Source of the DNA: Candidatus Latescibacterota bacterium | GTDB taxonomy: Bacteria; Latescibacterota; UBA2968 | Length of the DNA stretch: 64,000 bases | Reading direction: 5' to 3' | Assembly: GCA_038279365.1 (NCBI GenBank) | Contig: JAYODI010000016.1 | Coordinates: 224 to 64,223 of the forward strand | Shown: in pieces, positions 32,165 to 60,945 of the stretch | Numbering within the stretch: position 1 is the stretch's first letter | How the letters are laid out: the number at the start of each line of letters is the position of its first letter | The notes under the pieces: model-generated | What the model was told of the DNA's origin: nothing | The model's database searches: none | The model's input: only the letters and a program-made list of their open reading frames with translations | Position numbers and translations under genes: made by a program

Positions 32165-32351
32165 GTATAACATTCCTTCCTCGGTGAAAAAAGATGAGTT
32201 TAAATTCCCATACCTAATATACCTTATTGGACAACTTTTGCACAAGCGCGTCTTTATTAAAATTTTGATTGGATGGCTGGGTGCGTTTTTTTTGTCTTTT
32301 ATTTTTATTTGGTTTTATATTGCACCATCACCTTTTTAGAAAGGAATGATT

Positions 32352-45851: not shown

Positions 45852-47039
45852 ATGGATTTACATGAAAAATATCGATTGACGCGCATTGTCAATGCCTGTG
45901 GCAAGGTGACTAAATTGGCGGGTGCCATTGTGTTGCCAGACGTGCGTGAGGTGGTGACCGAAGCGATGGGGCAATTTTTTGACTTGGAAGAGTTGCAAAT
46001 GCGTTCGGGAGAAGTGATTGCTAAGGCGACGGGGGCACAGTGGGGCTGCGTGACGGCTTGTACGGCTGCGGGCATTACACTGAGTGTGGCGGCAACCATG
46101 ACTGGTAAGTCTTTGGGGAAAGTGGGGCAATTGCCTGATACCACGGGCATGAAAAATGAGGTGGTAATCCAAAAGGGGCATACGGTTAACTTTGGCGCGC
46201 CTGTTACACAAATGGTGCGCCTTGCGGGTGCCAAGGTGATAGAGGTGGGCACGGTTGATGGTGCCTCAGAAGCGTTATTGGATCATGCCATTGGTGATGC
46301 GACGGCAGCTGTTTTGTTTGTGGTGTCACACCATACTGTACAGTTTGGATGTGTGACGTTGGCACGCGTGGTTGAGCTGGCGCATAAACGTGGTGTGCCC
46401 GTGATCGTTGATGGTGCGGCACAATCGTTTTTGATTAAAGAGATAGTGGAAACAGGGGCTGATTTGGTGATTTGCAGTGGGCATAAGTATTTGTCGGGCA
46501 CAACGGCGGGTGTGGTGTGTGGCAAGCGCGATTTGGTAGAAGCGGTTCATTTACAAAATAAGGGGATTGGCCGCCCGATGAAGGTGGGGAAAGAGGGGAT
46601 TTTTGGGGTGATGGCTGCGTTGGAATATCGGATGAAATTGGATGTGAAGGGTTGGCAGACGGAACAAAATCGCAAAATGCAGATGGTTTTGGATCAGTTA
46701 AAGGGCATTGATGGGGTGCAACTAAGTGTGGACAATGACCCCAATGGAAATCCGTTTGGTCGGGCCCATGTGGGCATTGATGCGTTGGTGGTGGGTTTGT
46801 CTCCGGCAGTGGTTTCTGCCGTCTTAAAAGACAACGACCCCGCCATCCATTTGCGTGATCACCACGTGGATGAAGGGTTTTTTACTGTGGATGCTATGGA
46901 ATTGACAGATGAAGAAGTTGTGCTGACCTGCCAACGATTGCGTGAGGTACTTACGGCATCTGAGGCTGAAAAAAGCCATCTGATGCATAAATATGGGGGG
47001 GGCGAACCTGTCGATATCAAACGCCATTGGTTGCGTTAG
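45852..47039 (+). CDS. SelA-family PLP-dependent enzyme lacking the tRNA-binding N-domain (DgaE / SelA-like)
   Basis: VICSGHKYLSGTTAGVVCGKRDLVEAV...GRPMKVGKEGI parallels the SelA motif SGDKLLGGPQAGIIVGKKELI...RALRVDK. At about 395 aa it is too short for a bona fide SelA. Confidence 0.65.
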   Translation: MDLHEKYRLTRIVNACGKVTKLAGAIVLPDVREVVTEAMGQFFDLEELQMRSGEVIAKATGAQWGCVTACTAAGITLSVAATMTGKSLGKVGQLPDTTGMKNEVVIQKGHTVNFGAPVTQMVRLAGAKVIEVGTVDGASEALLDHAIGDATAAVLFVVSHHTVQFGCVTLARVVELAHKRGVPVIVDGAAQSFLIKEIVETGADLVICSGHKYLSGTTAGVVCGKRDLVEAVHLQNKGIGRPMKVGKEGIFGVMAALEYRMKLDVKGWQTEQNRKMQMVLDQLKGIDGVQLSVDNDPNGNPFGRAHVGIDALVVGLSPAVVSAVLKDNDPAIHLRDHHVDEGFFTVDAMELTDEEVVLTCQRLREVLTASEAEKSHLMHKYGGGEPVDIKRHWLR

Positions 47040-47170
47040 TTTTGGTTGCGAATGGTTTGTATGAGTGTGCGGATTTGCTGGCGTTTTTGGCAGATCAGCT
47101 GATAAAAATCACGCTGTTGGGGTTTGGGCCACGTGGTTTCGATTTTTTCTTTTAATTCGGTATTAATCAT
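47036..47170 (-). CDS. possible small protein (44 aa)
   Basis: Below the track cutoff. MINTELKEKIETTWPKPQQRDFYQLICQKRQQIRTLIQTIRNQN has a strong SD, AAGGAGG, 8 nt upstream of ATG 47170. Confidence 0.35.
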   Translation of the reverse strand: MINTELKEKIETTWPKPQQRDFYQLICQKRQQIRTLIQTIRNQN

Positions 47171-47287: not shown

Positions 47288-48523
47288 TTAATCGAGCAAT
47301 TTCCCACCACCAAACATAGTTGCAATATCACGTTTGATGTCTTCTGGGGTGAGGGGCCAACCGGCTTCTCGTAAGAGGGTATACTTTTCGGTGAAGACGG
47401 GGGCAATGACTTTGATGGAGTGTGCCCATTTGTAAAGCAATTGGTCGAGAATACGGGCATCGGAGTGTTGGGGCACAAAAGAAGTGCCAAGCAATTCGAT
47501 GCGTTCTTGTGTGATTTCCCGAATAATGCTGGGGTTGTTGAGGAACCACCAGCAACCAAATGGGTGCACATTGGGAAATTTGCGTCCTGTGACACAAAGC
47601 TCGTGTTGGTTTTCGCGAGACAAGAGGGTAATTAGGAAATTTACGCCTGGCCAATCGCGGGCAATGCGCTCAAGATTGCTGATGTCCCATTTGCCCAAGC
47701 TGTCGCCCCCATCGCGAAGAGCAGGATTGACTTGGCGTGTGACCCCCACCATCATGGCCGATGGAATGTTGAGTTTTTGTGCGGTGGGGTAAACCACGTT
47801 GGCCATGAGTTGGCTGATGCTGTCTTCTGATGGATAAGCAAAGTCGGGAGGTAATGAAATGGCCATATAACGGGCATTCATTTTGGTACACCAGTCGGTG
47901 AGGTAACGGCGTAATTCGGTATAGGTTTTTTCGGACAATTGGGTTTCAACTTCATAACCCAAAGCTTTTAATTTTTCGACGGGTGCTGGCCAGTTCATGA
48001 GGGCACTGTCGAGACGCAAAACGGCTTTGAAACGCGGGTCAATTTCTACATTGTTTTGCCACATGGGGCCTTCGGTGGGGTCTAAGGGATCATTGGTCAT
48101 ATAGACACATCCCACGCCCGATTTTTCGAAGACCATGTTGACATATTCTTCCCGTGACATGGAGGCATAAAGCGCACGAAACTCGGACAGATCTTTGGCG
48201 CGTGGGTTTAACCCCAAAGTGCTCATAACGGTGACCACGCCAATTTGTGCTTCGGCGATGGGTGAACTGTCACCCACAAACAGTTGTTGCCAGATGATGT
48301 CGGCTTGTTGGGGTTTGGGCATGGTGTTGAATGCTTCAACAGAAATGCCATCGGGCAAGTTGCGTGAACATTCGGCTTTGAGATAATGGTAGGTGACCAG
48401 TTCATCGGGGCCTGCCAAATACATTTCACCCATGGTGGGTGGATAAAGATGGGTGTGAATGTCTACAATCGCATGGTCTTGAAATGCTTTTTCAACGGCT
48501 TCTGCGATGGAAAAATCTGCCAT
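47288..48523 (-). CDS. amidohydrolase-fold TIM-barrel protein, glucuronate-isomerase (UxaC)-like
   Basis: SD AAGGAG. The N-terminal AIVDIHTHLYPP...VTYHYL resembles the UxaC IIDYHCHL...HYKW signature. The assignment is tentative. Confidence 0.55.
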   Translation of the reverse strand: MADFSIAEAVEKAFQDHAIVDIHTHLYPPTMGEMYLAGPDELVTYHYLKAECSRNLPDGISVEAFNTMPKPQQADIIWQQLFVGDSSPIAEAQIGVVTVMSTLGLNPRAKDLSEFRALYASMSREEYVNMVFEKSGVGCVYMTNDPLDPTEGPMWQNNVEIDPRFKAVLRLDSALMNWPAPVEKLKALGYEVETQLSEKTYTELRRYLTDWCTKMNARYMAISLPPDFAYPSEDSISQLMANVVYPTAQKLNIPSAMMVGVTRQVNPALRDGGDSLGKWDISNLERIARDWPGVNFLITLLSRENQHELCVTGRKFPNVHPFGCWWFLNNPSIIREITQERIELLGTSFVPQHSDARILDQLLYKWAHSIKVIAPVFTEKYTLLREAGWPLTPEDIKRDIATMFGGGKLLD

Positions 48524-48627
48524 TTACTGCTCCTTGTTCGATACGGTCGATTATTTTTAAGGACTCGAAATATAATAGATATGCGTGGTTTATGCAAAAG
48601 GGGCAACCTTTATGGGGCACGATTTTC

Positions 48628-49596
48628 TTATGTATTTCGCACCAAATACCCTTTTTCTTTGTCGATGATGTTCATCAGTGTTTCCCCATTGACAAAGCGT
48701 CTGAGGTTTTCGATAAAAATATTTTTGATGTTGACATCACCTTCTCCGCACAGGCTGGCGGTATGGGGTGTGAAAGACACATTGGCCATATCCCAAAGCG
48801 GACTGTCTTTGGGCAGGGGTTCTTTTTCAAAAACGTCGAGGCCGGCACCTGCGATTTTGCCTTGTTGTAGGGCGTCAATCAGGTCAGATTCGTTAATGAG
48901 GGGGCCACGCGCAATGTTGATGATGAGGGCTGAATTTTTCATGCTGTCAAAACACTGGGCATTGATGATGCCTTCTGTGGCAGGAGTGTGTGGCAGTGCT
49001 ACCACAACAATATCAGATTCGGCCAAGGCTTGGTGCATGGCATCGGGTTTGACCACGCGGTCTACGCCTTCTGGTGGTGTGGTGGCTTGTACGTCTACGG
49101 CGATGACTGTCATGCCAAATGCTTTGAGACGCAAGGCAATGGTGCGCCCAATAGAACCGAGACCGAGCACACAAGCGGTGAGCCCATCAAGTTGCATAAC
49201 GGGCACTGCTTCACGTGCCCATATGCGTTCTTTTCGGTTTCGCTCGTGCCCAATAATACCACGCGAGAGCGCAAGGATATGCGCCAGGGCATGTTCTGAG
49301 ATCACGGAATCGTATGCACCAGCGGTGTTGGTGATATGTACTTTGCTTGCAAGCATTTCGGGGTAGAGCATGGTTTCAAAACCCACACCAATGCTTTGTA
49401 CATAATTGAGTTTTTTGGCTTGGAGAAAGGCTTCGCGAGGCAGGCGCCCAATGACCACATCGGCATCGACAATTTCGCGTATTAAATCTTCGTTTGTGGA
49501 TGCGGCAACAACGTTGAGGTCTTTGGATACGGCTTGGAATTCGGGGATCCATGCTTGCCAGCGACCGGCCATAACAACAGCTTTGAATTTGCTCAT
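48628..49596 (-). CDS. D-isomer-specific 2-hydroxyacid dehydrogenase (NAD-binding)
   Basis: Motifs GLGSIGRTIALRLKAFGM, ARGPLI, LDVFEKEP and TPH. Confidence 0.9.
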   Translation of the reverse strand: MSKFKAVVMAGRWQAWIPEFQAVSKDLNVVAASTNEDLIREIVDADVVIGRLPREAFLQAKKLNYVQSIGVGFETMLYPEMLASKVHITNTAGAYDSVISEHALAHILALSRGIIGHERNRKERIWAREAVPVMQLDGLTACVLGLGSIGRTIALRLKAFGMTVIAVDVQATTPPEGVDRVVKPDAMHQALAESDIVVVALPHTPATEGIINAQCFDSMKNSALIINIARGPLINESDLIDALQQGKIAGAGLDVFEKEPLPKDSPLWDMANVSFTPHTASLCGEGDVNIKNIFIENLRRFVNGETLMNIIDKEKGYLVRNT

Positions 49597-49656
49597 TGTA
49601 TCAAATCCTTATGTGGTTTGGTTTGAAAATGTAAGAAGGAATAATATAGCATATTT

Positions 49657-51108
49657 TTAAAGCCCCATGCGCTCAAATTGGCATGCAGGCGCATCGTAAT
49701 GGGTGAGAAGGTCTTTCATTTTGGTGGCGAGTTTGTTTTCTAACTCAGTATCAAAAATAGGATTTGCTTGTTCTGGATCTTTTGTGATGTCGTAAATGAG
49801 GTTGTGATCGGGGGCATTGTGGTGTTTGCGCGATTGGGTTTGGATGCGATAGTGTGGAATGTCGTAGGTATGGTTCATAAAGATACCGAGTTCGGCTTTG
49901 GCCAATACGTCGCGTTTTTCAAAGTCTGAAAAATTGCATGCATTGGCGGTGTGATTGTAAAGTGTAGACCCTTCTAAGGCTTGTCGACAATAAGTGTATT
50001 GCCCATCTGTTAGGCCAATGTCTTTGCCAAAATAACCATAAATAATGGCGTCGTTGTGCGATTCTTCTTGGGTAAAGAGATGAACCATAGATTTTGCTTG
50101 TACGGCAGATGGATTTTGACCGCCGTGTAATTCCATAAAGGTGGGCATGAGATCCATGGTTGTGGTAAGGGCAGAAGACCGACGTGGGTCGGCATTGGGG
50201 GCGCACACAAAGAGGGGGATGTGGGTGAGCTTGTCGTAATCGAACATGTAGTTTTTGGCCCAATAACCGTGTTCGCCCAAAAGATGACCATGATCGGTGG
50301 TGAGCACCAGCGTGGTGTCTTTCCACATATCGAGTGCGTCCATTTTATCTAAAAGTTTGCCCAGCCAATAATCGGCCATGGTGAGGGTGCCTGCATACGA
50401 TTTGCGAATGTGTGCAATGGCATCTTCGTCTTCGGTGGTGGGGGCATAATCGGGCCAGTCGAAGTGGTAACGGTTGTCCCACGTGTCATTGTACATGTTG
50501 CGGTATTTGGACGGACAGACAAAGGGTTCGTGTGGGTCAAAACATTCAAGGTGTAAATGCCAGTTGTCTGCTGTGTGATTGTTTTCGAGAAAATCAAGTG
50601 CCTTGATGAAACACTGAGGCGTGGAATAATCTTCATCGCGTTCGGTGTCCATAAATTGTCGATTGACCCAATAGGCACGTCGGTTTTTGCCTCTAAATTC
50701 GGGAATGTCGGGGTCATTGACCAAGGGGTGCCACACATCACCTTCTTGCCCACGTAAAAACTCCCAGGAATTAAACCGGGTATGATAACATTCTCCGCCA
50801 CTGTGGAAATAGTGATAGTGGTCGGTGATCATATGTGAATAGGTGCCTTTTTGACGGTAAAGTTCTGGTTGTAAACAATCGTCCCAAGGTTGGATGGGTG
50901 ACCAAGGGGTTTCGAGAAAGCTGAGGCGACCTGTGTACATGTCTCTTCGGGCAGGCATACAGGGCATGGAACCACAATAGTGGTTGTCGAAGGTGATGCC
51001 CCGTTGGGCGAGTCGATTGATATTGGGTGTTTGTACCCACGCGTCTTTGTTATAGGGTTGGATATAGTGTCGATTGAGTGAATCGAGCATAATGAATATG
51101 GTACGCAT
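49657..51108 (-). CDS. sulfatase (formylglycine-dependent)
   Basis: Motifs IFIMLDSL, GSMPCMPARRDMYTG (CxPxR) and TDHGH. Confidence 0.85.
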   Translation of the reverse strand: MRTIFIMLDSLNRHYIQPYNKDAWVQTPNINRLAQRGITFDNHYCGSMPCMPARRDMYTGRLSFLETPWSPIQPWDDCLQPELYRQKGTYSHMITDHYHYFHSGGECYHTRFNSWEFLRGQEGDVWHPLVNDPDIPEFRGKNRRAYWVNRQFMDTERDEDYSTPQCFIKALDFLENNHTADNWHLHLECFDPHEPFVCPSKYRNMYNDTWDNRYHFDWPDYAPTTEDEDAIAHIRKSYAGTLTMADYWLGKLLDKMDALDMWKDTTLVLTTDHGHLLGEHGYWAKNYMFDYDKLTHIPLFVCAPNADPRRSSALTTTMDLMPTFMELHGGQNPSAVQAKSMVHLFTQEESHNDAIIYGYFGKDIGLTDGQYTYCRQALEGSTLYNHTANACNFSDFEKRDVLAKAELGIFMNHTYDIPHYRIQTQSRKHHNAPDHNLIYDITKDPEQANPIFDTELENKLATKMKDLLTHYDAPACQFERMGL

Positions 51109-51129
51109 AAAGGGCTCCGTTTGGGCGGG

Positions 51130-51984
51130 TTAATCTAAATTGGGCAGTGTGGGCTTGTTGGGTTTGACGGTGCGATGATCAACGCGTATGGGGTCTGCCA
51201 ATTCTTTAAACTCTTTGCAAAAGGCGACCACGTGATTGGCCGCGGCATCGAGAATGGTTTGGCCTTTTTCTTTTGTGGCCAAAGTGGGTGCACCTGATAC
51301 GCCGTTTGGTGTGGCTGAGCTTGTCCACTTGACGAGTTTGACGGGACCGATGCCTTTGGTGAGATCGACGTAGAGGTATTTGGAACCTTCGGCCCCAGCG
51401 GCACCGCCATAATGGTCTTGTGCTTTGTCCATTTGCACGCGGTCTTCGGCCAATGCAAGATAAAGCGATGTTTCCAATTCACAAGCGTGTGCCGCACCGC
51501 CCATACCAGAGTCGCGAATTTCTTCAAATTCTTCTTTGATGAAATTTGTCCAGATGGTGGATGCGATGAGGGCATCGGTTTCGAGGGTGGCACGGCGGGC
51601 AATAAATTCGCAGAGGTGTTCATTGGAGCCGTGGCCATCGACGATAAAGATGCGTTTGAAACCCGCATAGGCCACGCTTTTGCAGACATCGAGGCAATAT
51701 TCGATAAAGTGTTCATAGGTGACATGGATGGTGCCCGGAAAATCTTGGGCGTGTTCGTTATACCCATAGGGAATGGTGGGCATCACGAGCAGGTTGCGTG
51801 GATCGCGTTTGGCGGCTTCGAGGCAAATGCTGGAGGCCAAGAAATTGTCGGTGTCTAAGGGGAGATGATGGCCGTGTTGTTCGGTGCTGCCAATGGGCAA
51901 GAGAATGACTTTGCCTGCTTCGGCGGCTTCGTTAATTTCGGGCCAAGTGAGATATTCGTATTGGTATTTGTCGAGTGAATTCAT
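51130..51984 (-). CDS. creatininase-family amidohydrolase
   Basis: Motifs LLPIGSTEQHGHHLPLDTD, DGHG and ACELETS. The start is trimmed to ATG 51984. Confidence 0.85.
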   Translation of the reverse strand: MNSLDKYQYEYLTWPEINEAAEAGKVILLPIGSTEQHGHHLPLDTDNFLASSICLEAAKRDPRNLLVMPTIPYGYNEHAQDFPGTIHVTYEHFIEYCLDVCKSVAYAGFKRIFIVDGHGSNEHLCEFIARRATLETDALIASTIWTNFIKEEFEEIRDSGMGGAAHACELETSLYLALAEDRVQMDKAQDHYGGAAGAEGSKYLYVDLTKGIGPVKLVKWTSSATPNGVSGAPTLATKEKGQTILDAAANHVVAFCKEFKELADPIRVDHRTVKPNKPTLPNLD

Positions 51985-51995
51985 GGGATGTCCTT

Positions 51996-53138
51996 TTATG
52001 ATTCGATGTCTAATACACTGCCAGCAATGTGGCGAATGCCATCTTGGGTATAAAAATAATAAGTGACAAGAACGCGACCATCGGGCAAAACACAGCCCCA
52101 CGGATATCCGAGGTCTTTGCCCAAACCGTCTTGACGAATGACAAACTCGGGCGCACTGTCGATGTTGTCACATTCGGGATTGAGCAAACGCGCACGAATG
52201 CCAAATGGCTCGTGGCGATAACCGTAGACGAGTAAGACACGGTTGTCGGGCAGGCGAATGGGGGTATATGGGTGACCGATGATGTTGCGTTTTTGCCACG
52301 TGGACCATGTGTGACCGTTGTCTGTTGACTCTGTGGTGATGAGGTGATCGTCAAAGTTGGCAGTGCGAATGAAGCAAATGATTTTGCCCGATGGGGTATT
52401 GTAAAATGCGGGTTCATGCATGTCAACTTGGTTGTTGGGGTCTTGGGCAACGATTGATCTGAATGACCATGTCTGTCCGTTGTCTGAAGAGGCAAAAGCA
52501 TAGGCCGCACTTTTTGTACCTTGGCGTGGGCTGGTGTATGAGGGGATAAGGATTTCGCCATCGTTTTCAACGGGTAAACCACGAATGGCCCCTCCCAATA
52601 GGGGGCGTTTGTTGGGAATGATGTCATCGGTATTTGGTATGGCAGGGAGATATTGGTGTGGTGACCAAGTCTGCCCATTGTCATCGCTGTAGCGGGTGAA
52701 TGCACCCCACATGAGGTAATTGGCCCCTGTTGTTTCGGGGGTACCGTGAAAGGGTCTTTTGTAAGATTTTACGACATCGGCAAATGGGGGAGGAAAGGGA
52801 TACCAAGAAAATGCGGCGAGGATGATGCGACCTGATGCGAGTTTGATAAGAGAACCATCTTGGTCTGCGGCTTGGGTGTTGAGTGGGATGGCTTGTGGTT
52901 CGCCTATTGGATTTAGATTGGGGTCGAGTTTGATGTAGGCTTGATGGGAACGGGCTTCGACGTGAATGACTTTGTTTTTGAGCTCGGGAGGTGCTTCGTC
53001 TGTGAGTAAATAACGTGGGTCGAGGGCACGGCGGCAGGTGAGCAATATTTCATTGGTGTCGAGGGTGATGCATGATGGGAATGCGATGTAATAAAAAGGG
53101 TCTTTGTAGAGGGTGATGTCTTTGAGTTTTTTGATCAT
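51996..53138 (-). CDS. BNR/Asp-box repeat beta-propeller, sialidase (exo-alpha-sialidase)-like
   Basis: Three Asp-boxes: SDDNGQTWS, SSDNGQTWS and STDNGHTWS. The start is set at ATG 53138. Confidence 0.8.
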   Translation of the reverse strand: MIKKLKDITLYKDPFYYIAFPSCITLDTNEILLTCRRALDPRYLLTDEAPPELKNKVIHVEARSHQAYIKLDPNLNPIGEPQAIPLNTQAADQDGSLIKLASGRIILAAFSWYPFPPPFADVVKSYKRPFHGTPETTGANYLMWGAFTRYSDDNGQTWSPHQYLPAIPNTDDIIPNKRPLLGGAIRGLPVENDGEILIPSYTSPRQGTKSAAYAFASSDNGQTWSFRSIVAQDPNNQVDMHEPAFYNTPSGKIICFIRTANFDDHLITTESTDNGHTWSTWQKRNIIGHPYTPIRLPDNRVLLVYGYRHEPFGIRARLLNPECDNIDSAPEFVIRQDGLGKDLGYPWGCVLPDGRVLVTYYFYTQDGIRHIAGSVLDIES

Positions 53139-53224
53139 TTTTGTAGAACACCTTTTGATTGAAGTTTTTTGCCTTCGGCGAGATACTTTTTTTAACGACA
53201 AAAAAGTATCCAAAAAAGTTGCTT

Positions 53225-53379
53225 GCTGGCCGCGAGGGGCTTTTAATAATGTGCCGTGTTATTACAAAGGTAAACCACCCTTACCTGCCCGTACCGTTCA
53301 TCCCCTCCTGCCTCGTGTTTCACACGCCCCTCATTCCACCCATTTTCACCACACCAACGGCACAATGGCCCACACCACC
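53225..53379 (-). ncRNA. conserved intergenic element, copy 1 (candidate cis-regulatory leader RNA, sense = minus strand)
   Basis: Near-identical blocks are shared with 59994..60128: GCTGGCCGCGAGGGGCTTTTAAT (23/23), ACAAAGGTAAACCACCCTyACCTGCCCGTrCCGTTC, and CCACACCAACGGCACAAyGGCCCACACCACC. It ends 87 nt upstream of the BNR gene start. Confidence 0.5.
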
Positions 53380-53414
53380 CGTGGCTGGAATTGGCGTTGG
53401 GGAGAGGTAGCTTT

Positions 53415-55994
53415 TTAAAGGCGGATGGTTGTGCGTTTGGTTGCGTTGGCGTGAATGTTCTGGGTCAATTTTACTTGTTTGCCATTGAGGGTGAGTTTGT
53501 CGATTTCGAGTTCGCCTTCTGTGAGGTCTATGGTGAGTTGGGTTTTTGTAAGGGTGAGCGTGCCAAAGCCTGTGGCGGTTGAGATGAAGGTTTTAAATCG
53601 GTCGTTTTGCAATTTGGGCGATAGGTTCAAGGCTTTTTTTGCGCGTGAATAGTGGAAGCCTGATAGGGAATTGAGCACCGCAAAACTTGCCAGTGCGCGT
53701 GCGTAGTAGTTGCCACATTCGTATTCATTCCAGGGGTTTCGCGTGCGGCCATCGTGTCGATTGCGTACGGCTTTGACAAGGGTGAGGCCTTCTTTGACGA
53801 GGCCTTCTTCGATGAGGTGCGAGGCGACTTGATATTCAATGCCTGTCCAGACTTCATCGGAATATACAAAGGGGAGGGTGGGTTTGCCTCCGCGTGGCCA
53901 AGAGCAAAGCAAAAGGCCGGGTTCTGGGCCGTTGGCATAACCAGGGCGTTGTGTGCAGGCGTGATCGCTGAGGTCGTGGCGGAAATTATATTCGAAAATG
54001 GCTTTGAGGGTGCGCCGTGTGCGGGTGCGGTTTTGGGCGGTGGGAATGGCGTAGATTTTGGCCATCCAGGCACCAATGACCCCATCGGAAATACACCCTG
54101 TGCCGTATTGATATTTGGGGCCTTCTTTTTTGAGGAGTTTGTCCACTTCGTTGCTGTTGCGATTCACTTTGGCAACGTGTTTGGCAAAGGTTGTGTCATG
54201 TAGACCTTTGTATTGAACCTTTTGATAATAATATTCGCCATTAAAAAGATGTTTGTCGAGATAGGCCGCGCCTTTTTTGCCTAAATCTTTGTAGAACGTG
54301 GCTTCGTTTGATTTGCCCAAATCATTTGCCATTTCGGCCAAAGCCGCCAGGGCACCTAAGTAGATACTGGAACACATGCCATCGGCACCCCAAAATTCAA
54401 TATCATAGGTGTTGTGATGGGGTTCGATGAGTACACCCTTGTGGTCGGGATCCCATACTTTGATGCAATAGTCGAGGCTGCGTTTGGCGAGTGGATACAT
54501 TTTTTGAAGCCATTTTTTATCACCAGAGATTTGCCATTCGCGATAGACTTTCATGATGCCCCCGAGTTGACCATCGGAAGCGGCATGAAAGTTGTGTGTC
54601 ACTTCTCCATCGGGCAAAGCCGAGCGGAATGTGACGTGTCCTTTGCTGTCCATGGTGCGTTCGAGTTCTTGCTCGCGAAAGGTGCGCTCGATGTTGGGAT
54701 AGAGGTGTGGGAAAGCTTGTGCATAATTCCAAACGTGGGTGCAAGAGCCTGCGCAACAGCCTCGATCTACAAAACACCCTTCCCAGGCCCAAGCGTTGCC
54801 ATTTTCTTGGCGCAAGAATGTGGGGGATTTGAGGATGCCTAAGTTGGCAGATACGGCATCGAGCACATACGCGGGCAGGGTAGATGAAAAGAGCGCATTG
54901 TGAAAGGCTTGGGTACGGGTTTTGAGCATGTCGTAGTGTTTATGTACGTATGAAGCAACCTCGGCGGCATTGTGCCATAGACCAGCATAAAAGGGTCGCC
55001 AAGATGGGGGTGGGGTGTCATCACAGCAGGCGTCACTGTTGCAACTTGAATCGTTTTCAATACGGCGTTCGGTATAATGGCAATTTGGGAAATGCCAGGT
55101 GATGAGAATCGGATAGGTGATGCTTTCGCCTTTTTTGAGGCTGCCCGATAGTTGAATGGAACCTCCATTGCGCCCAGTGTATTCCTTTTTTTCATTGCCT
55201 GCATTGCTTTTAAACGTGCCTGTGGATACTTCTCGCCAAAGGGCCGAAATGCTGTCGAACCAGCCGCCCCGAAACCACATGGCTTTGGTTTTGGGTTTGT
55301 GGCCTATGACGGTTAATGAGGCGCTGCCAAAATTTTCGTCGTTGGCAGGTTCTGTGTTGTAAAAATGTGCCCCATTGGGAATAAGGGCATTGTGGCTGTT
55401 TTTACCACCGCTTGTGCCTTGTGCCAAATGTGACAAATGGTAGGCAAAATCGTAATCGACTTTGTTTTTGCTGTGGTTGGTGAGGGTGTATTCTAAAATG
55501 GCACAGGGGATACTTGAGTTTTTGTCATCGAGGGGAATAAAAGGGTTAAAACCTGTGATGTTTACGTGTAGGGGAACTTTGGGATCTTTGAGGGTCACGT
55601 TGCCAAAGGGATACTCACCGTGGAATGTGACGTTCTTAAATCGTGGTAATCCTTCAAAACCACCTTCTCGAAAACCTTGTCCTTTGGTGCCTAAGTTGTA
55701 AATTTTTTCGGGGGGCATAGGGCCTTCGACCAATTTGGTGATGCCATTCTTGCCTTTGATGTGAAGGGTTGCAAAGGCCGCATCACTGGTGCCGTGCCCG
55801 TCGGGGGTAGCTGAGGTGGCGGGCTTGTTTCGAATGGAAAAATCTTGTAAACCACCGTATCCATTGAGACAAATCATGCCTGCACCCAAACCACCTATCG
55901 GAAATGCAATTTGTAAATTGTTGTCAGAGGTAAAGGTGCGTTGTTTGCCATAGTCGTTTAATATTTTGTCGGAATAGGGTTTGGCTTTGGGCAT
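53415..55994 (-). CDS. GH116 family glycoside hydrolase (GBA2-type beta-glucosidase/xylosidase family)
   Basis: The N-terminal IAFPIGGLGAGMICLNGYGGLQDFSIRNKP is the GBA2_N signature. The protein is 859 aa with a C-terminal (alpha/alpha)6-like catalytic region. Confidence 0.8.
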   Translation of the reverse strand: MPKAKPYSDKILNDYGKQRTFTSDNNLQIAFPIGGLGAGMICLNGYGGLQDFSIRNKPATSATPDGHGTSDAAFATLHIKGKNGITKLVEGPMPPEKIYNLGTKGQGFREGGFEGLPRFKNVTFHGEYPFGNVTLKDPKVPLHVNITGFNPFIPLDDKNSSIPCAILEYTLTNHSKNKVDYDFAYHLSHLAQGTSGGKNSHNALIPNGAHFYNTEPANDENFGSASLTVIGHKPKTKAMWFRGGWFDSISALWREVSTGTFKSNAGNEKKEYTGRNGGSIQLSGSLKKGESITYPILITWHFPNCHYTERRIENDSSCNSDACCDDTPPPSWRPFYAGLWHNAAEVASYVHKHYDMLKTRTQAFHNALFSSTLPAYVLDAVSANLGILKSPTFLRQENGNAWAWEGCFVDRGCCAGSCTHVWNYAQAFPHLYPNIERTFREQELERTMDSKGHVTFRSALPDGEVTHNFHAASDGQLGGIMKVYREWQISGDKKWLQKMYPLAKRSLDYCIKVWDPDHKGVLIEPHHNTYDIEFWGADGMCSSIYLGALAALAEMANDLGKSNEATFYKDLGKKGAAYLDKHLFNGEYYYQKVQYKGLHDTTFAKHVAKVNRNSNEVDKLLKKEGPKYQYGTGCISDGVIGAWMAKIYAIPTAQNRTRTRRTLKAIFEYNFRHDLSDHACTQRPGYANGPEPGLLLCSWPRGGKPTLPFVYSDEVWTGIEYQVASHLIEEGLVKEGLTLVKAVRNRHDGRTRNPWNEYECGNYYARALASFAVLNSLSGFHYSRAKKALNLSPKLQNDRFKTFISTATGFGTLTLTKTQLTIDLTEGELEIDKLTLNGKQVKLTQNIHANATKRTTIRL

Positions 55995-56025
55995 GGGATT
56001 CCTCTAAAAGTTGTTTATGACAATG

Positions 56026-58035
56026 TTACCATTCTGAAATGGGTGTCACGGGTGATGGGGATGCATCTGGAAATGGTGTGAGTAATATTGTAAATTGCAA
56101 CTGTGCTGCTTCAAATAGAGGTGATATGATGAGGCGGCTGTACCCCGCGTTTGTTTTTTGAGGGCTTTTTTGTTGTGCCGAGTCGATGCCAAATTTCCAT
56201 CCTGAAGGCGATAGGATTTTGGCATAAATTTTTTTGTTATTTTGTGTCAAGATCGCAGATCCATCCGTTTGTAATGCGATGGTTGCTTTGGTGGTGATTC
56301 CCCATTGAATGAAACGAGGATTATCTAAGTTGTATTCGTCTTGAATAAGAATGTCTTGGCGATTGTTGATGAGCGCAATACCGCGTATGATTTTGCCCGA
56401 AGCGTTTTCGAGGTAGGCCTGAGATAAATCGACTGTGGCATATGGAAATGCGCCTTCGCTTCGAAACCCAATGAGCCTGGCTGTGCCATTGGGGTGCTGG
56501 CTTTTGTTGTTGATGAGCGGTACATTGTGGCTTTCGGAATTGAGGCGATAATAGGTCCAGCGGGTGGCATTTATGCCACTGCCAAAATAGTTGGGCAAGT
56601 TGTAATCATCGGACCCCAAATCACTGGCCCAGCGCTCGCCGAGGGCATCAACAACAAAATTGCCTAAATCGAGGTGGCCATGATTGACCTGATTATAACC
56701 GGCTTTGATGCCTACAAATACGGCATTGGGGTCTTCCCAACTGCTTCGCAAAAAGGCCACTTCGACAATGCCACCAAATTTGCGATCTAACTCGGGAATG
56801 GCAGAGATATTGGGTTTGGGCACATACCACATGATGTGTTGTGGTTCGGCTTTTTTGCGTGCCACAATGGCATGTTCGGATGCACCAATAAAGTCATCTT
56901 CGTAGGCCGATGCAAGCCAGAAGTTACTGGGCATGGGGGTGCGTTTGGCGGTTTCACCAACGTCGGCATAATTGAAATAATAATCGGTTGGGCCTGCACC
57001 ATGAACGGGGAAATACCCTGCTTTGGTCAGGCCATTTTTGTTTTTGAGGCCAAAGGTGGTGCCCAGTGCGGTATCGAGGGCAGATAGCCCATAAACGGTA
57101 TAACGCGTGGCGTAATCCCAATATCCTGGGCCTTCCCCCCAAGCCCCATCGGGTTCGTAGGTTTTAAGTGCGGTGGGCAGTGACTTGTAGACTTCGGGAA
57201 TGATTTGTTGGGCATATTGGGGATCTGTTTCGGCAATGGCCAAAGCCCCTACGATGAGGCCGCCATTGCAGACTTGATTCCAGTTGAATTCGGAGCTGAT
57301 CCACCAGGCGGGTTTGGTGCCCGTGTAGGCTTTGATGCCTTCTTGTAGACCGTGCCGAATCAAGCCTGTTTTGATGGTGTTTCGGGTTTGTTCGTTGAGG
57401 GCAGGATAAAACCAGTCGTATCCGATGCCAACGGCATGGGTCATTTCGGCAACATCGAGAAAGTGCGATGGGTTCCAGTCGGGAAAGGCCACTACGGTGA
57501 GGAGTACATCGCGCCCTGCATCGAGATATTTTACATTGCTGGTCCAACGATAAGCGATGCCAAAGTGATAGATGCGGTTTAAGGCATCTCTGCTGACAGA
57601 AAGCAAACGTGGCCCAATGAGTACATGGTGAAGGGGTGCTTTGCTGATGAGTTTGTCGGCTTCGGAGATCACATCGGAAACTATTTTTTTAAGTGCTGTA
57701 TCGGTTTGCCAGAGGATTTTGAGTTGGGCGAGTTGGTCGTCTTTGAGCATGAGACGTGGGTGATTTTTGTCGAGGGTATTTAAAAGGGTATCTGGATTGG
57801 GCGTACCTGTTTGGGCGTTTTGTGCATTGTATTGTGTGGCAAAAATGATAAAGTCGGGCAGATCCACTTTGCCATTGTTGTTGAGGTCGTAATGTGCTTC
57901 GGTGGTGCCAAAAGCGGTTGCAAATCGCAAAAAGTCAACAAACTCCACTTTGCCATTGCCGTCGAAATCGGCTGTTTGAGCCATTGCGGCGGTGGGGAGT
58001 AAACACAAAACAAAGATGTAAATGTGGCGATACAT
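56026..58035 (-). CDS. heparinase II/III family polysaccharide lyase with N-terminal dockerin-like module
   Basis: Signal peptide MYRHIYIFVLCLLPTAAMA. EF-hand pair DFDGNGKVEFVDF and DLNNNGKVDLPDF. Also FNWNQVCNGGLIVGALAIAE and NHGHLDLGNF. Paralog of 58059..59912. Confidence 0.8.
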   Translation of the reverse strand: MYRHIYIFVLCLLPTAAMAQTADFDGNGKVEFVDFLRFATAFGTTEAHYDLNNNGKVDLPDFIIFATQYNAQNAQTGTPNPDTLLNTLDKNHPRLMLKDDQLAQLKILWQTDTALKKIVSDVISEADKLISKAPLHHVLIGPRLLSVSRDALNRIYHFGIAYRWTSNVKYLDAGRDVLLTVVAFPDWNPSHFLDVAEMTHAVGIGYDWFYPALNEQTRNTIKTGLIRHGLQEGIKAYTGTKPAWWISSEFNWNQVCNGGLIVGALAIAETDPQYAQQIIPEVYKSLPTALKTYEPDGAWGEGPGYWDYATRYTVYGLSALDTALGTTFGLKNKNGLTKAGYFPVHGAGPTDYYFNYADVGETAKRTPMPSNFWLASAYEDDFIGASEHAIVARKKAEPQHIMWYVPKPNISAIPELDRKFGGIVEVAFLRSSWEDPNAVFVGIKAGYNQVNHGHLDLGNFVVDALGERWASDLGSDDYNLPNYFGSGINATRWTYYRLNSESHNVPLINNKSQHPNGTARLIGFRSEGAFPYATVDLSQAYLENASGKIIRGIALINNRQDILIQDEYNLDNPRFIQWGITTKATIALQTDGSAILTQNNKKIYAKILSPSGWKFGIDSAQQKSPQKTNAGYSRLIISPLFEAAQLQFTILLTPFPDASPSPVTPISEW

Positions 58036-58058
58036 GTGCCTGATCCTTTTAAACCTGT

Positions 58059-59912
58059 TTACCATTTGGACAAGGGTTTGATTTCTGTTGTTTCTATTGT
58101 CTCACCTGTGGGCCATTGGGGTGCGAACAAAACGGAGATGCACGTGTGATCTGTTTGATTTGGCAGATGGATGAGAAGGCGCTTGACACCTTCATTCTTT
58201 TTTTCAGGCGGTTCTTGTTCTGCGGAAGCGACTGTGAATGTGGCACCTTGCGGAGATAGAATATGCGCTTTGAGGGTTTGACCTTCTTGTGTGAGGGTGG
58301 CGGTTGTGCCGTTTATGTGAATGTTGGCATCGGTGGTGATGCCCCAGGTGATGTCGGTTTTTTGGGTGAGTTCAAATTCGTCTTGTAGCAGTGTTGCTCG
58401 TCGGTTATGGATGAGGGCAACACCGCGCAAGATAGATTTGGCTTGGTTTGGATAGCCTTTGGTCAGATCTATTTGGGCATAAGGAAATGCGCCTGTGGTG
58501 TCAAATTGGGTGAGTGTGGCAACACCACTTGGGTCTTGTTCTTTGGCATTGAGCGTGGGAACGTTGTGGCTTTTGGAGATGAGGCGATAATATTGCCAAC
58601 GCTGGCCACCAAAATAACCAGGCATGTTGTAATTGTCGGAGCCCAAGTCACGTGCCCAACGTATTCCGAGGGCATCGAGCTCAAAGTTGCCTAAGTCGAG
58701 GTGGGAATGGTTAGCTTCGTTGTATCCGGCTTTGATGCCCACCCACAGGGCATTGGGATCGTTCCATGCACTGCGAAAGAGAGCGAGTTCTACGGGGCCT
58801 CTAAAGCGTTTGTCGAGAGAAGGTTGTTCCAAATTGCCTTGGGGTTGGGGAACATACCAAACGACGTGCTGTGGAGAAACGTGATTTGTTTTTGCGATGA
58901 GGCGATGTTCGGCATCGGCAACAAAGGGATTGTTGAAGACTTTGGATAGCCAGAACATGCTGGCCATGGGCTGGTGGTGCGGGCGTTCGCCACAGTCGGC
59001 ATAGGCCAAATACATGCCTGTGGGGCCCGTGGTGTAAATGGGAGAAAGACCAGCTTCGGAGAGGCCTTCTATTTGGAGCAGATCAAAGTCTGTGTTGAGT
59101 GCGGTTTCGAGGGCGGCAAAGCCGAACATGGTGTAGCGAGTGGCATACCCCCAATAACCGGGGCCTTCTGCCCAGGCACCGTCGGGACCATACATTTTGA
59201 GCGCGCGCGGTAGAGATGCAACGGCTTGCGGAATGATTTGCTGGGCATATTGGGGGTGGGTTTCGGCAATGGCGAGGGCACCAACGATGAGACCTGCATT
59301 GCAGACTTGGTTCCAGTTGTGATCACATTTGGTCCACCAGCCATATTTTTCGGTACCCGCATAGGCTTTGAGGCCAGGTTCGAGGCCGTGTGTAATAAGG
59401 CCCTTTTGAATGTGCTGTTTTTGGTCTTCGGTTAAGATGGGATAGAGCCAGTCGTAGGCAACCCCTACGGCGTGTGACATTTCGGCGGTGTCGAGAAAGT
59501 GGCGTGGGTTCCAATCGGGGAAAGCACAAACTGCGAGGATGTTTTCAAGGAGGTTGTCGGCATACTTTTGTTCGCTTGTCCATCGCCAAGCCAAACCGAG
59601 GGCGTAAACTCTGGCCATACAGTCGCGGCTGGTAGAAAGGAGGCGCAGGCCGTCGGGGATTTTGTATTCAAGAAGGGGTTTGGTGAGGGTTTTGTCGGCT
59701 TCTTGAATGGATTTTTGGACATAAGATTGGAGTGTGGCGTCGGTTTGGGATAGATTTTTAAGTTCGATAAACCGGTCATTTTTGAGCATGAGGCGGGGGT
59801 GTTCGGGGTGGAGGGTGTTGAGTAGGGTGTTTGAGTTCATTTTTTGGGCCTCTGTGTTTGAGATAAAAAAGATCAGAATGGTTAAGAGCGTTGAGATCAG
59901 TTTTTTGTGCAA
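58059..59912 (-). CDS. heparinase II/III family polysaccharide lyase
   Basis: Motifs HNWNQVCNAGLIVGALAIAE and NHSHLDLGNF. A TTG start at 59912 (AAGAGG 5 nt upstream) gives the signal peptide MHKKLISTLLTILIFFISNTEA. The track start 59981 would run into the upstream hairpin. Confidence 0.8.
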   Translation of the reverse strand: MHKKLISTLLTILIFFISNTEAQKMNSNTLLNTLHPEHPRLMLKNDRFIELKNLSQTDATLQSYVQKSIQEADKTLTKPLLEYKIPDGLRLLSTSRDCMARVYALGLAWRWTSEQKYADNLLENILAVCAFPDWNPRHFLDTAEMSHAVGVAYDWLYPILTEDQKQHIQKGLITHGLEPGLKAYAGTEKYGWWTKCDHNWNQVCNAGLIVGALAIAETHPQYAQQIIPQAVASLPRALKMYGPDGAWAEGPGYWGYATRYTMFGFAALETALNTDFDLLQIEGLSEAGLSPIYTTGPTGMYLAYADCGERPHHQPMASMFWLSKVFNNPFVADAEHRLIAKTNHVSPQHVVWYVPQPQGNLEQPSLDKRFRGPVELALFRSAWNDPNALWVGIKAGYNEANHSHLDLGNFELDALGIRWARDLGSDNYNMPGYFGGQRWQYYRLISKSHNVPTLNAKEQDPSGVATLTQFDTTGAFPYAQIDLTKGYPNQAKSILRGVALIHNRRATLLQDEFELTQKTDITWGITTDANIHINGTTATLTQEGQTLKAHILSPQGATFTVASAEQEPPEKKNEGVKRLLIHLPNQTDHTCISVLFAPQWPTGETIETTEIKPLSKW

Positions 59913-59993
59913 GGTTGCCTCTTGGGTTGCTTGTGTTGCCTGCGGCGCCTTCTTTCTTGTAGAGACACAAGAAAGAAGCAAAGAAAGTCTCTC

Positions 59994-60128
59994 GCTGGCC
60001 GCGAGGGGCTTTTAATCATGTTCAGTGTTTTTACAAAGGTAAACCACCCTCACCTGCCCGTGCCGTTCCCACACCCCCCGCATCCCACCCACTACCTCCA
60101 CACCAACGGCACAACGGCCCACACCACC
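59994..60128 (-). ncRNA. conserved intergenic element, copy 2 (candidate cis-regulatory leader RNA)
   Basis: See copy 1. This copy is 20 nt shorter in the central C-rich (G-rich in minus sense) region. It ends 82 nt upstream of the lyase TTG start. Confidence 0.5.
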
Positions 60129-60160
60129 GGGAGGTTGAATGGGGCTTTTCTAAATATACC

Positions 60161-60919
60161 TTATGGGCGGGTGAAAATCAGATTGTGTACCACGCCGGGG
60201 GTGAAGCTGATGAGGTCGGCGTTGGAGAGGGTGAAGCCGGCTTCGGTGAAGGCTTCTTGAATGTTTTGGGCTATTTGGCCGTGCATGTAGACTTCGATGA
60301 GAAAGGTTTTGAGGCGTGGGTCGCGTAGGGTGTTTTTTGCACCTGATATGATGCGGTCTTCGATGCCATCGACGTCTACTTTGATGTGGGTGGGAAAGGG
60401 GAGGCCAAATTTGCCGGTGAGGTCGTCGAGGGAGACGGCCATGATGCCTTGGCGGTTTTGGGGTTCAAAGGCTTTTTCGCCTTGGGTAATGGCACGGCCT
60501 AAGGCGTGAAGGGCCGCACCGGTTTTAAAGGCTTTGGAATAGAAGTGGTCGATGCCTGTTTGATCGGATAGGGCCAATGGGTAGGCGGTCATGGTTTTGC
60601 CCAAGTTGTTGAGCACAATGTTGCGGTTGAGTTTGGCAAAGTTGAGGGCTTCGGGTTCGAAGGTGAGGATCTGGGCGTTGCCATTGAGGCATTTGGCGGC
60701 ATAGAGGGCATATTGGCCGATGTTGGCACCGATGTCGTAGAGGGTATCGCCTTCTTTGAGGTGGGTGTCGATCCAGTCGAGGGTATCGGGCTCTTTGTGG
60801 TCGTAGTGACCGGCACGCCAGAGTTCGTAGTTGCGAATGCCGTCTTCTGATTCTTGGTCGGTGTCGAGGTCGAGTAAGATGGTTTGTTTGCGTACGGTGC
60901 AGGTTTGGATGATGGACAT
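60161..60919 (-). CDS. FkbM family methyltransferase
   Basis: Motifs LYDIGANIGQYALYAA and FEPE. Confidence 0.85.
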   Translation of the reverse strand: MSIIQTCTVRKQTILLDLDTDQESEDGIRNYELWRAGHYDHKEPDTLDWIDTHLKEGDTLYDIGANIGQYALYAAKCLNGNAQILTFEPEALNFAKLNRNIVLNNLGKTMTAYPLALSDQTGIDHFYSKAFKTGAALHALGRAITQGEKAFEPQNRQGIMAVSLDDLTGKFGLPFPTHIKVDVDGIEDRIISGAKNTLRDPRLKTFLIEVYMHGQIAQNIQEAFTEAGFTLSNADLISFTPGVVHNLIFTRP

Positions 60920-60945
60920 TTTTGATCCTTTGTGATTGGTTGCGT

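Follow-up and report, generated by a model that had tools for sequence, protein, structure and literature searches.

A dispersed family of structured intergenic elements with a pseudoknot in Candidatus Latescibacterota

Two related intervals in a glycan operon and their homologs

The window analyzed here, a 64-kb stretch of DNA (contig JAYODI010000016.1 of Candidatus Latescibacterota), carries a glycan operon (47288-62316), and two intergenic intervals of this operon harbor copies, denoted c1 and c2 and both read on the minus strand, of one structured element. The copy c1 lies between a GH116 gene and a BNR/sialidase-like gene, and c2 between an FkbM-type methyltransferase gene and a heparinase-like gene (Table 1). 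An initial annotation of the same DNA had described a conserved element upstream of two glycan-degradation genes and proposed that it was a leader RNA. The repeat itself is confirmed by alignment: 53225..53379 recurs at 59994..60128 in the same orientation, each of the three near-identical blocks is found exactly twice in the window with no more than 3 mismatches (0-0.02 expected by chance), and the start codons, ATG at 53138 and TTG at 59912, are 87 and 82 nt away, respectively, as had been stated. The two intervals are clearly homologous when aligned on the minus strand, and the homology reaches farther than had been thought. It does not end at 53225 and 59994 but, according to the family profile, continues in the 3' direction through the hairpins that had been considered different in the two copies, up to the common CGCCGMAGGCA, and stops merely 27-34 nt ahead of the start codons. 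The hairpin GATACTTTTTT/AAAAAAGTATC at 53182-53210 does exist, but it is homologous to its counterpart in c2, and both represent the family helix S2, kept via compensatory changes. Similarly, the 20-nt longer segment is real and, of the two copies, present in c1 only, but it turned out to be a hairpin conserved in the family (P3) that c2 has lost. In strain-level contigs whose BNR proteins are identical, these copies recur and differ by a handful of substitutions.

Further members of the family were collected by seed, pattern and profile searches. A scan of species-representative genomes with a 20-mer of block C of the repeat yielded three matches, of which one was genuine, namely L012 (loci outside the window are given L numbers), a metagenome-assembled genome labelled Candidatus Latescibacterota; L009, a contig reached via a BNR homolog, contains a copy cut at its 5' end upstream of a sulfatase gene. 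A gapped pattern derived from the first four copies (AAAGCCCCTCGCGGC, 40-65 nt, CGSCGNAG) retrieved 32 metagenome loci, 12 of which contain full-length homologs (13 copies, two of them being one sequence on two contigs), and the remaining loci were dismissed as chance matches in GC-rich coding DNA. Another copy in L015, a 50-nt 5' fragment in L027 and two copies in L047 came from profile searches. Altogether, the family consists of 19 distinct copies (the two in the window and 17 others), three of which are cut at the 5' end; the element is about 225 nt long, and all 19 copies reside on Latescibacterota-type contigs. Proteins at least 90% identical to the GH116 and sulfatase proteins of the window bear the NCBI name Candidatus Latescibacterota, a group of uncultured polymer degraders for which we found no regulatory RNAs in the literature.

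The searches beyond this family were negative. Comparison of the whole window with Rfam 15 gave no match at the gathering score and, at E<=10, nothing that overlaps c1, which agrees with the earlier failure to recognize a known riboswitch or leader; in nine other loci, no Rfam match overlaps an element. The single partial overlap of c2, with drz-agam-1 (18 bits compared to the gathering score of 37, E 7.6), was discarded as chance-level. Plasmid, phage and viral-contig collections contained no true match, two matches on viral contigs being chance matches of 20-35 nt. More distant relatives of the operon (L049-L051, BNR identity 55-62%) have no copy, and a covariance model of the 3' domain, run over 270 kb, recovered known copies only and no isolated 3' domains.

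The conserved fold, the folded strand and composition

The curated structure was scored on an unbiased MAFFT alignment of all 19 sequences. Standard pairs occupy 95.0% of 717 cells, compared to 41-59% when the partners are slid by 1-3 columns, and 18 of the 40 pairs have changed on both sides (4-6 in the slid controls); the covariation values observed were reached in 0 of 500 shuffles. RNAalifold, applied to 14 copies, predicted 43 pairs, 15 of these with compensatory changes, and an all-against-all scan of alignment columns returned the same helices as the top signals, with no additional convincing helix. The covariation that the initial annotation had proposed to look for in a larger alignment is thus strong, and the elements constitute a new family of structured elements with a pseudoknot.

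The 5' domain is closed by helix P2 (UGUGCAGUU with AACUGCGCG), which is identical to helix 1 of the initial annotation. P2 occurs in CG/UA and AU/GC/CG variants and covaries strongly, with two pairs changed on both sides and 98% paired in the family alignment. Within P2, the 6-bp hairpin P3 carries the triloop GGA in most copies (GAA or GGC otherwise) and shows covariation at four of its six pairs. The 3' domain comprises hairpin P5, kept in four forms (CUCGC/GCGAG, CUCC/GGAG, CCAC/GUGG and CCC/GGG), the 12-bp U/A-rich hairpin S2, in which 9 of the 12 pairs have changed on both sides, and the pseudoknot S1, which joins the S2 loop to the strand located just 3' of P5. The homologous S1 strands are paired at all five positions in 18 of the 19 copies, in six combinations (GAGAC/GUCUC, GAGAC/GUCUU, GCGAC/GUCGU, GCAAC/GUUGU, GCGGC/GCUGU and GCGGC/GCCGU). 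Between the covarying stems lie near-invariant single-stranded junctions (GGGCC, UUGGUG, GGGAAC, CGGGCAGGURAGGGUGG and AAAGCCCC). The predicted helix P4 (GGGU with GCCC) is almost invariant, and covariation neither supports nor contradicts it. At the 5' border, most copies have a small CACC-N4-GGUG hairpin with a conserved stem and a variable loop; the stem shows weak covariation and is absent from three copies. Alternative pairings exist as well: GGUG can pair with the 5' CACC or with a 3' CGCC, and L1, the pyrimidine tract between S1a and S2a, can take the place of S2a opposite S2b. The closing helix P1 suggested by RNAalifold (5' GGUG with 3' CGCC) was rejected because covariation is never seen in it and both L015b and strain variants of c1 disrupt it. 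Helix 2 of the initial annotation (AGGTAA/TTACCT) fared no better: it depends on UUUACCUUUG, a variant confined to the two copies of the window, in place of which the other copies have YYUNCGCCCG. Coding potential was rejected on either strand, in agreement with the earlier view of the element as non-coding: the copies have no stop-free frame in common, and the length of most indels is not divisible by three.

Across the structure, 62 cells are G-U and 8 are A-C. Given this excess, the gene-sense strand is the folding strand, which corresponds to the minus-sense RNA favored initially for the window; the opposite strand would lose about 9% of the pairs. The composition of the element also differs from that of its surroundings. 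In 13 of the 14 full-length element-bearing contigs, the GC skew of the element is +0.20 to +0.30 whereas that of the flanks is -0.13 to -0.40 (these contigs include the window, L015, L021-L024, L026, L027, L029, L033 and L040; the exception is L028, with a flank at +0.15). Given that the flanks have the opposite skew, the G/U-rich composition of the element is held against the local bias. The G-rich sense strand of the element is almost always on the C-rich genomic strand, and none of the explanations that we tested accounts for this. Over the entire window (1-64000, plus strand), the GC skew is +0.06 to +0.37 and the AT skew is mostly negative, regardless of gene orientation; given that the sign is the same over genes of both orientations, this skew looks replication-related. 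Because of the plus-strand G excess, the glycan operon is on the C-rich strand.

Two features of the sequence point to possible tertiary structure. Inside P2, G makes up 51-68% of the sequence, C is nearly absent except in P3, and every copy has 7-12 GG runs; four copies, including c2, fit the canonical three-tier G-quadruplex pattern, and a G-quadruplex may form in this core. In the 3' domain, the order of the pseudoknot strands implies that L1 must run along S2. L1 can be placed parallel to the purine strand of S2 over 5-9 positions, with an L1 C opposite a G-C pair at a near-constant register in 10 of the 10 informative copies; Watson-Crick pairing of L1 with this purine strand (S2b) in the antiparallel direction, in runs of 5-8, scores about equally. 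In c1, the U6 of L1 could be either a third strand parallel to the A-tract of S2 or an alternative pairing partner, and the data fit both. A triple helix of U.A-U and C+.G-C triplets in the pseudoknot domain is therefore only one candidate arrangement. H-type pseudoknots with a U-rich strand in the major groove are known from telomerase RNA and the SAM-II and preQ1-II riboswitches, and triple helices also from ENE/MALAT1 (PMC7583470). The element shares with these the strand order S1a-L1-S2a-S1b-S2b, supported by covariation, and an L1 that can run parallel to the purine strand; it differs in being a domain of a larger RNA, with no sequence similarity to them and with a triplex that is a candidate.

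Table 1. Extent and parts of the two copies in the window, with their neighbors, and the gene convergent to the copy in L027
Feature	Positions	Strand	Details
c1, full element	53162..53398	-	nhmmer profile, 202 bits, E 1.3e-60, plus alignments
c1, neighboring genes			GH116 gene, stop at 53415; BNR/sialidase-like gene, ATG at 53138
c1, 5' border	53375..53394	-	degenerate form of the family motif AAAC-TTSAAT and a small CCAC..GUGG hairpin
c1, P2 5' arm	53356..53364	-	UGUGCCGUU; helix 1 of the initial annotation; partner 53290-53298
c1, G-rich core inside P2	53299..53355	-	about 51% G, 7% C; P3 at 53313-53327
c1, P2 3' arm	53290..53298	-	AACGGUACG; covariation count, alignment
c1, junction	53275..53286	-	AGGUAAGGGUGG; nearly invariant across all copies
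c1, P4 (predicted)	53237-53240		GCCC, pairing with GGGU of the junction; only one-sided changes in the family
c1, P4 3' strand and hairpin P5	53222..53240	-	GCCC, then CUCGC-GGCCA-GCAAG
c1, pseudoknot strand S1a	53218..53222	-	GCAAC; partner S2 loop 53194-53199, 4/5 bp
c1, linker L1	53212..53217	-	U6, between S1a and S2
c1, hairpin S2	53181..53211	-	GGAUACUUUUUU, loop GUCGUU(A), AAAAAAGUAUCU; S1b is loop 53194-53199
c1, conserved 3' tail	53170..53180	-	CGCCGAAGGCA; end of family homology
c2, full element without hairpin P3	59927..60148	-	nhmmer, 194.5 bits, E 2.8e-58, plus alignments
c2, neighboring genes			FkbM-type methyltransferase gene, stop at 60161; heparinase-like gene, TTG at 59912
c2, P2 and 37-nt G-rich core without P3	60059..60113	-	arms 60105-60113 and 60059-60067
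c2, GCCC and hairpin P5	59991..60009	-	GCCC, then CUCGC-GGCCA-GCGAG
c2, pseudoknot domain	59949..59991	-	S1a GAGAC 59987-59991; L1 UUUCUUUG 59979-59986; S2a 59968-59978; S1b GUCUCU 59961-59966; S2b 59949-59959
c2, conserved 3' tail	59937..59947	-	CGCCGCAGGCA
L027, convergent MR_MLE-like gene	2040-3410	-	

Gene context and exchange of the copies

All copies are intergenic, and in 14 of the 15 assessable loci the next gene is co-oriented with the element and starts 26-101 nt past its conserved tail; thus, neither random orientation nor a location inside genes, which the initial annotation had taken as signs of a REP/MITE-like repeat, was observed. The downstream genes, as identified by Pfam or clear motifs, encode two sulfatases, an M19 dipeptidase, a flavin mononucleotide (FMN) reductase, a family-1 glycosyltransferase, a GNAT-like protein, an AhpC/TSA-DsbD_N (peroxiredoxin-like) protein, a DUF6785 membrane protein, a SelA-like pyridoxal phosphate (PLP) enzyme, a HAD-like protein, the BNR protein and the heparinase-like lyase; two further proteins have no Pfam match, one of these with a lipoprotein-type signal peptide. 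These genes are unrelated, with no functional theme and no tie to glycan degradation, so the proposal of a conserved leader of glycan-degradation genes is not supported. The upstream genes are mostly co-oriented, with one divergent (L033). Given that c1, c2, L015b and L024a begin 4-25 nt past an upstream stop codon, these copies are inside operon-like arrays. The Shine-Dalgarno (SD) sequence is located 20-90 nt past the conserved part, where the sequence is not conserved. No consistent -35/-10 pair was seen when the 5' flanks were inspected by hand, and a search for intrinsic terminators gave matches at the chance rate for the region, the only one in an element being the weak 5-bp P5 stem-loop of c2.

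Two of these loci have additional features. The gene downstream of L024b (L024:9265-10221, AhpC/TSA and DsbD_N) contains an in-frame TGA at 9442 within the motif ADW-*-GYC, reminiscent of a selenocysteine UxxC redox center. An extra 5' extension, consisting of the hairpin CCCUUUCC-UAAA-GGAAAGGG and an A-rich spacer, is present at L024:8915-8975 and L040:1500-1560 (also in L022 and L023) and is nearly identical in L024b and L040 although both flanking genes differ; it could represent either an optional module at the 5' end or a terminator that belongs to the upstream gene.

Comparison of related operons shows that copies are gained and lost over short evolutionary times. The tree built from four flanking proteins is ((window, L006), L047), L007. 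The copy that precedes the BNR gene occurs in the window and L047 but not in L006, L048 or L007, and L007, a more distant lineage, lacks both copies; accordingly, the position of the element is not conserved between orthologous loci. In L006, which represents the syntenic sister lineage, the c1 site is occupied by a 21-nt spacer that corresponds to the last 21 nt before the ATG in the window, and the boundaries of this indel differ from those of the family. In L047, an extra MR_MLE gene is located upstream of the element, and the element and the BNR gene are still adjacent; thus, these two travel together. A flip of the outer G-C pair of S2 is common to c1 and L047a alone, which favors a shared ancestral copy before the BNR gene that was later lost in L006. 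By comparison, c2 and its positional counterpart L047b have different 3'-domain subtypes. Furthermore, c1 and c2 share variants seen nowhere else (P2 CC/GG and UUUACCUUUG) and differ in P3 and in the 3'-domain subtype, which points to exchange between copies within the genome.

Pairwise identity is 55-99% overall and 65-91% among full-length copies at distinct loci, and it reaches 91% between copies that precede unrelated genes. The element is modular: P3 is lost in c2, L1 is duplicated in L015b, and in L027 a fragment of ~50 nt matching the 5' end of the element (L027:1730-1782) lies ~30 nt upstream of the full copy. No terminal inverted repeats were found, all inverted repeats being internal helices (S2 and P2), none of which joins the ends consistently; target-site duplications were not found either, the longest flank-to-flank matches being 5-10 nt at inconsistent positions. 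Given the heterogeneous genes, the non-conserved positions, the 65-91% identity and the fragment in L027, c1 and c2 fit a dispersed, gained-and-lost repeat family rather than a dedicated leader of the glycan operon. Thus, the observation behind the initial annotation is confirmed and extended, and its interpretation is partly supported.

Several observations on the same loci can be added. The leader of the heparinase gene in L007 (L007:3355-3451), which has no element, keeps ATTCAA and CCGCCGTGGC...GGCAAAA...AAGAGG, motifs that resemble the 5' border motif and the 3' tail of c2; this leader could be either a deletion remnant or an ancestral leader. In L048 (1128-1953), the GH116 gene and the element before the BNR gene are replaced by a nucleotidyltransferase/HEPN gene pair (toxin-antitoxin-like). 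In the window, a 197-nt direct repeat with 71% identity (56582-56778 and 58609-58805) is contained in two adjacent heparinase-like genes, which appear to be tandem paralogs. At about 47036-47170 (minus strand), an open reading frame (ORF) of 44-45 codons immediately follows a gene for a 411-aa protein of unknown function and is found at the same position in L001, L002, L006, L007 and L047; it may encode a conserved small protein. The plus-strand gene at 32346-33749 encodes a beta-CASP/metallo-beta-lactamase ribonuclease, the best NCBIfam match of which is the type VII CRISPR Cas14 at 423 bits compared to the 800-bit cutoff; this protein is probably a housekeeping ribonuclease of the aCPSF/RNase J type.

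Possible roles of the element

We tentatively prefer the interpretation that the family is a portable, cis-acting structured RNA module of Latescibacterota with a gene-independent protective or insulating role; it is not a sensor dedicated to glycan genes. From the gene context, we infer that the element is co-transcribed with the downstream gene and affects that transcript in cis. The module would be transcribed in the sense of its neighboring genes, within an mRNA leader or an intercistronic spacer, and would fold into a first domain in which P2 closes a very G-rich core, usually with P3, and a 3' domain made of P5, the 12-bp S2 and the pseudoknot S1. It would act on its own transcript whatever the function of the downstream gene: a cistron otherwise poor in G and lacking structure would carry a compactly folded segment on its 5' side, and this segment would shield that part of the mRNA from decay or processing that depends on the 5' end, or from premature termination of the Rho type. 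Because such a module would work wherever it lands, it could spread, be exchanged between copies and be lost. A gene-independent role is favored given that no expression platform and no ligand-related gene theme are visible, that the module occurs in leaders and inside operons alike and that it is almost confined to C-rich transcripts. Processive antitermination RNAs, such as put of phage HK022 and EAR of Bacillus, are structured, occur in leaders or between genes of long operons, including those for polysaccharides, and act in the sense orientation only, with no need for a fixed distance from the start codon. The element resembles them, as read from the sequence, in being a structured RNA in leaders or between the genes of operons, but it has no sequence or model similarity to them and is a dispersed repeat rather than a feature of one operon type.

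Several results weigh against this interpretation. The energies of single-sequence folding of either copy are not better than those of shuffled sequences (z = +0.75 and -0.03), so the case for structure is a comparative one, and covariation in a recently expanded repeat could reflect propagation rather than a function in the host. In L027, the same-strand ORF is spurious, and the convergent MR_MLE-like gene ends at the tail of the element. Several copies lie about 10-20 nt after a terminator-like hairpin and would need a promoter of their own; a sigma-70-type promoter scan found none, and none was recognized for the copies behind such hairpins. The protective or antitermination role, finally, is a hypothesis built from gene context and composition.

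The features of a dispersed repeat would also be expected of a selfish, non-autonomous mobile element, with a fold that serves its own propagation or retention and with only incidental effects on the neighbors, for example, an end-only derivative of an IS200/IS605-type insertion sequence with a guide-RNA-like scaffold, or an RNA-mediated element resembling short interspersed nuclear elements (SINEs). Presence and absence at orthologous sites, the identity of up to 91% between copies before unrelated genes, the fragment beside the full copy in L027 and the loss or duplication of modules (P3 in c2, L1 in L015b) are all compatible with this possibility, and so are the AAAC-TTSAAT motif conserved at the 5' border, the single orientation relative to GC skew in 13 of the 14 full-length element-bearing contigs and the lack of terminal inverted repeats and target-site duplications, as in IS200/IS605 and repetitive extragenic palindromic (REP) elements. 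Compared to palindrome-associated transposable elements (PATEs) of the IS200/IS605 type and to TnpB/IscB guide scaffolds, the element additionally shares hairpins near both ends, an RNA pseudoknot and a sharp 3' end of homology, but no tool result backs membership: there is no match to HEARO of Rfam, and no gene for a transposase, TnpA, TnpB/IscB or reverse transcriptase was noticed beside the copies in this small sample, for which the Pfam scan covered the downstream genes rather than every flanking ORF, and some of the loci had gene calls. The plasmid, phage and viral collections gave no match, the boundaries of the indel at the c1 site relative to L006 are not those of the family, and the folded strand coincides with the C-rich, lagging-type strand, where transposition of lagging-template single-stranded DNA would predict the opposite. 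The classical miniature inverted-repeat transposable element (MITE) is multi-copy with insertion polymorphism, as is the element, but also has the terminal inverted repeats and target-site duplications that are missing here. A closer parallel is provided by BOX of pneumococci, ERIC of enterobacteria and Correia of Neisseria, which are likewise dispersed, multi-copy, intergenic and roughly 100-250 nt long, with modular variants and with presence or absence that varies between relatives. Repeats of this type have extensive predicted RNA structure and can affect co-transcribed genes (PMC3049150). The element has no sequence relation to them, a multi-domain pseudoknot fold instead of a long inverted-repeat hairpin, and neither terminal inverted repeats nor target duplications. 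In pneumococci, the parasitic repeats BOX, RUP and SPRITE are over-represented between convergent genes, with no tie to gene function (PMC3049150), whereas the element is between convergent genes in only 1 of the 15 loci and has a co-oriented gene start just downstream in the other 14. A selfish element would account for much of the evidence behind the preferred interpretation; overall, it appears rather unlikely.

The fold would also suit a riboswitch-like sensor of a global signal, be it a small molecule, an ion or an RNA-binding protein, with a broad regulon and with an output through access of Rho or ribonucleases to the G-poor linker rather than through a classical terminator or SD-sequestering helix. 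The multi-helix architecture with a pseudoknot, the near-invariant junctions between covarying stems, the position and orientation compatible with a 5' location, the several copies per contig before diverse genes and the alternative pairings (of GGUG, and of L1 in place of S2a) agree with such a sensor. Riboswitches of the cyclic di-GMP type occur in several copies per genome before functionally diverse genes and control a broad regulon. With the c-di-GMP-I/GEMM riboswitches the element shares a structured 5' location, covarying stems and conserved junctions, but it has no Rfam match and no recognizable expression platform, the SD sequence lying in unconserved sequence beyond the element; furthermore, identity of 65-91% over the whole length suggests recent spread rather than ancient aptamers, the sister lineage has lost the element and kept the operon, and P3 is dispensable in c2. 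A covarying domain 5' of a gene, as in riboswitch classes, is thus present, but the shared gene function is not; the lack of a theme among the controlled genes would still be compatible with a global ligand. A sensor would likewise account for much of the evidence behind the preferred interpretation; overall, we consider it unlikely. Similarly doubtful is a more specific proposal, namely that the family is a new class of portable bacterial RNAs with two unusual tertiary modules, the G-rich core (51-68% G, with G-quadruplex potential in every copy) and a triple-helix pseudoknot, which would function as a global-signal sensor or as a protective or antitermination cap, mainly on G-poor transcripts from the C-rich, lagging-type strand.

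A family of independently transcribed, trans-acting small RNAs, possibly sponges for a protein that recognizes the many GGA or G-rich motifs, is very unlikely. Multi-copy small RNA families exist, the core is rich in GG and GGA motifs and P3 has the GGA triloop in most copies, but in 14 of the 15 loci the element follows the orientation of the downstream gene, the 4-25 nt that separate c1, c2, L015b and L024a from the upstream stop leave no room for a promoter, and no terminator follows the element. Extremely unlikely, finally, is a promoter or operator module that is bound by a transcription factor at the DNA level: GGTGTGG is repeated 21 bp apart in block A, and TACCTTTG resembles the Bacteroidetes -7 box, but TACCTTTG is limited to the two copies of the window (YCGCCCG elsewhere), for which reason a Bacteroidetes-type promoter was rejected, no sigma-70-type promoter was found, and recognition of double-stranded DNA leaves both the compensatory changes and the 62-to-8 ratio of G-U to A-C unexplained.

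If the preferred interpretation of a portable, cis-acting RNA module with a gene-independent role is true, the family would be a clear bacterial case of an expression module that operates at the RNA level and is copied, exchanged and lost before unrelated genes. Structurally, it is of interest for its helix-closed G-rich core and for a pseudoknot that may carry a major-groove triplex, and its preference for the C-rich strand hints at a link between the compositional bias of genomic strands and the handling of mRNA.

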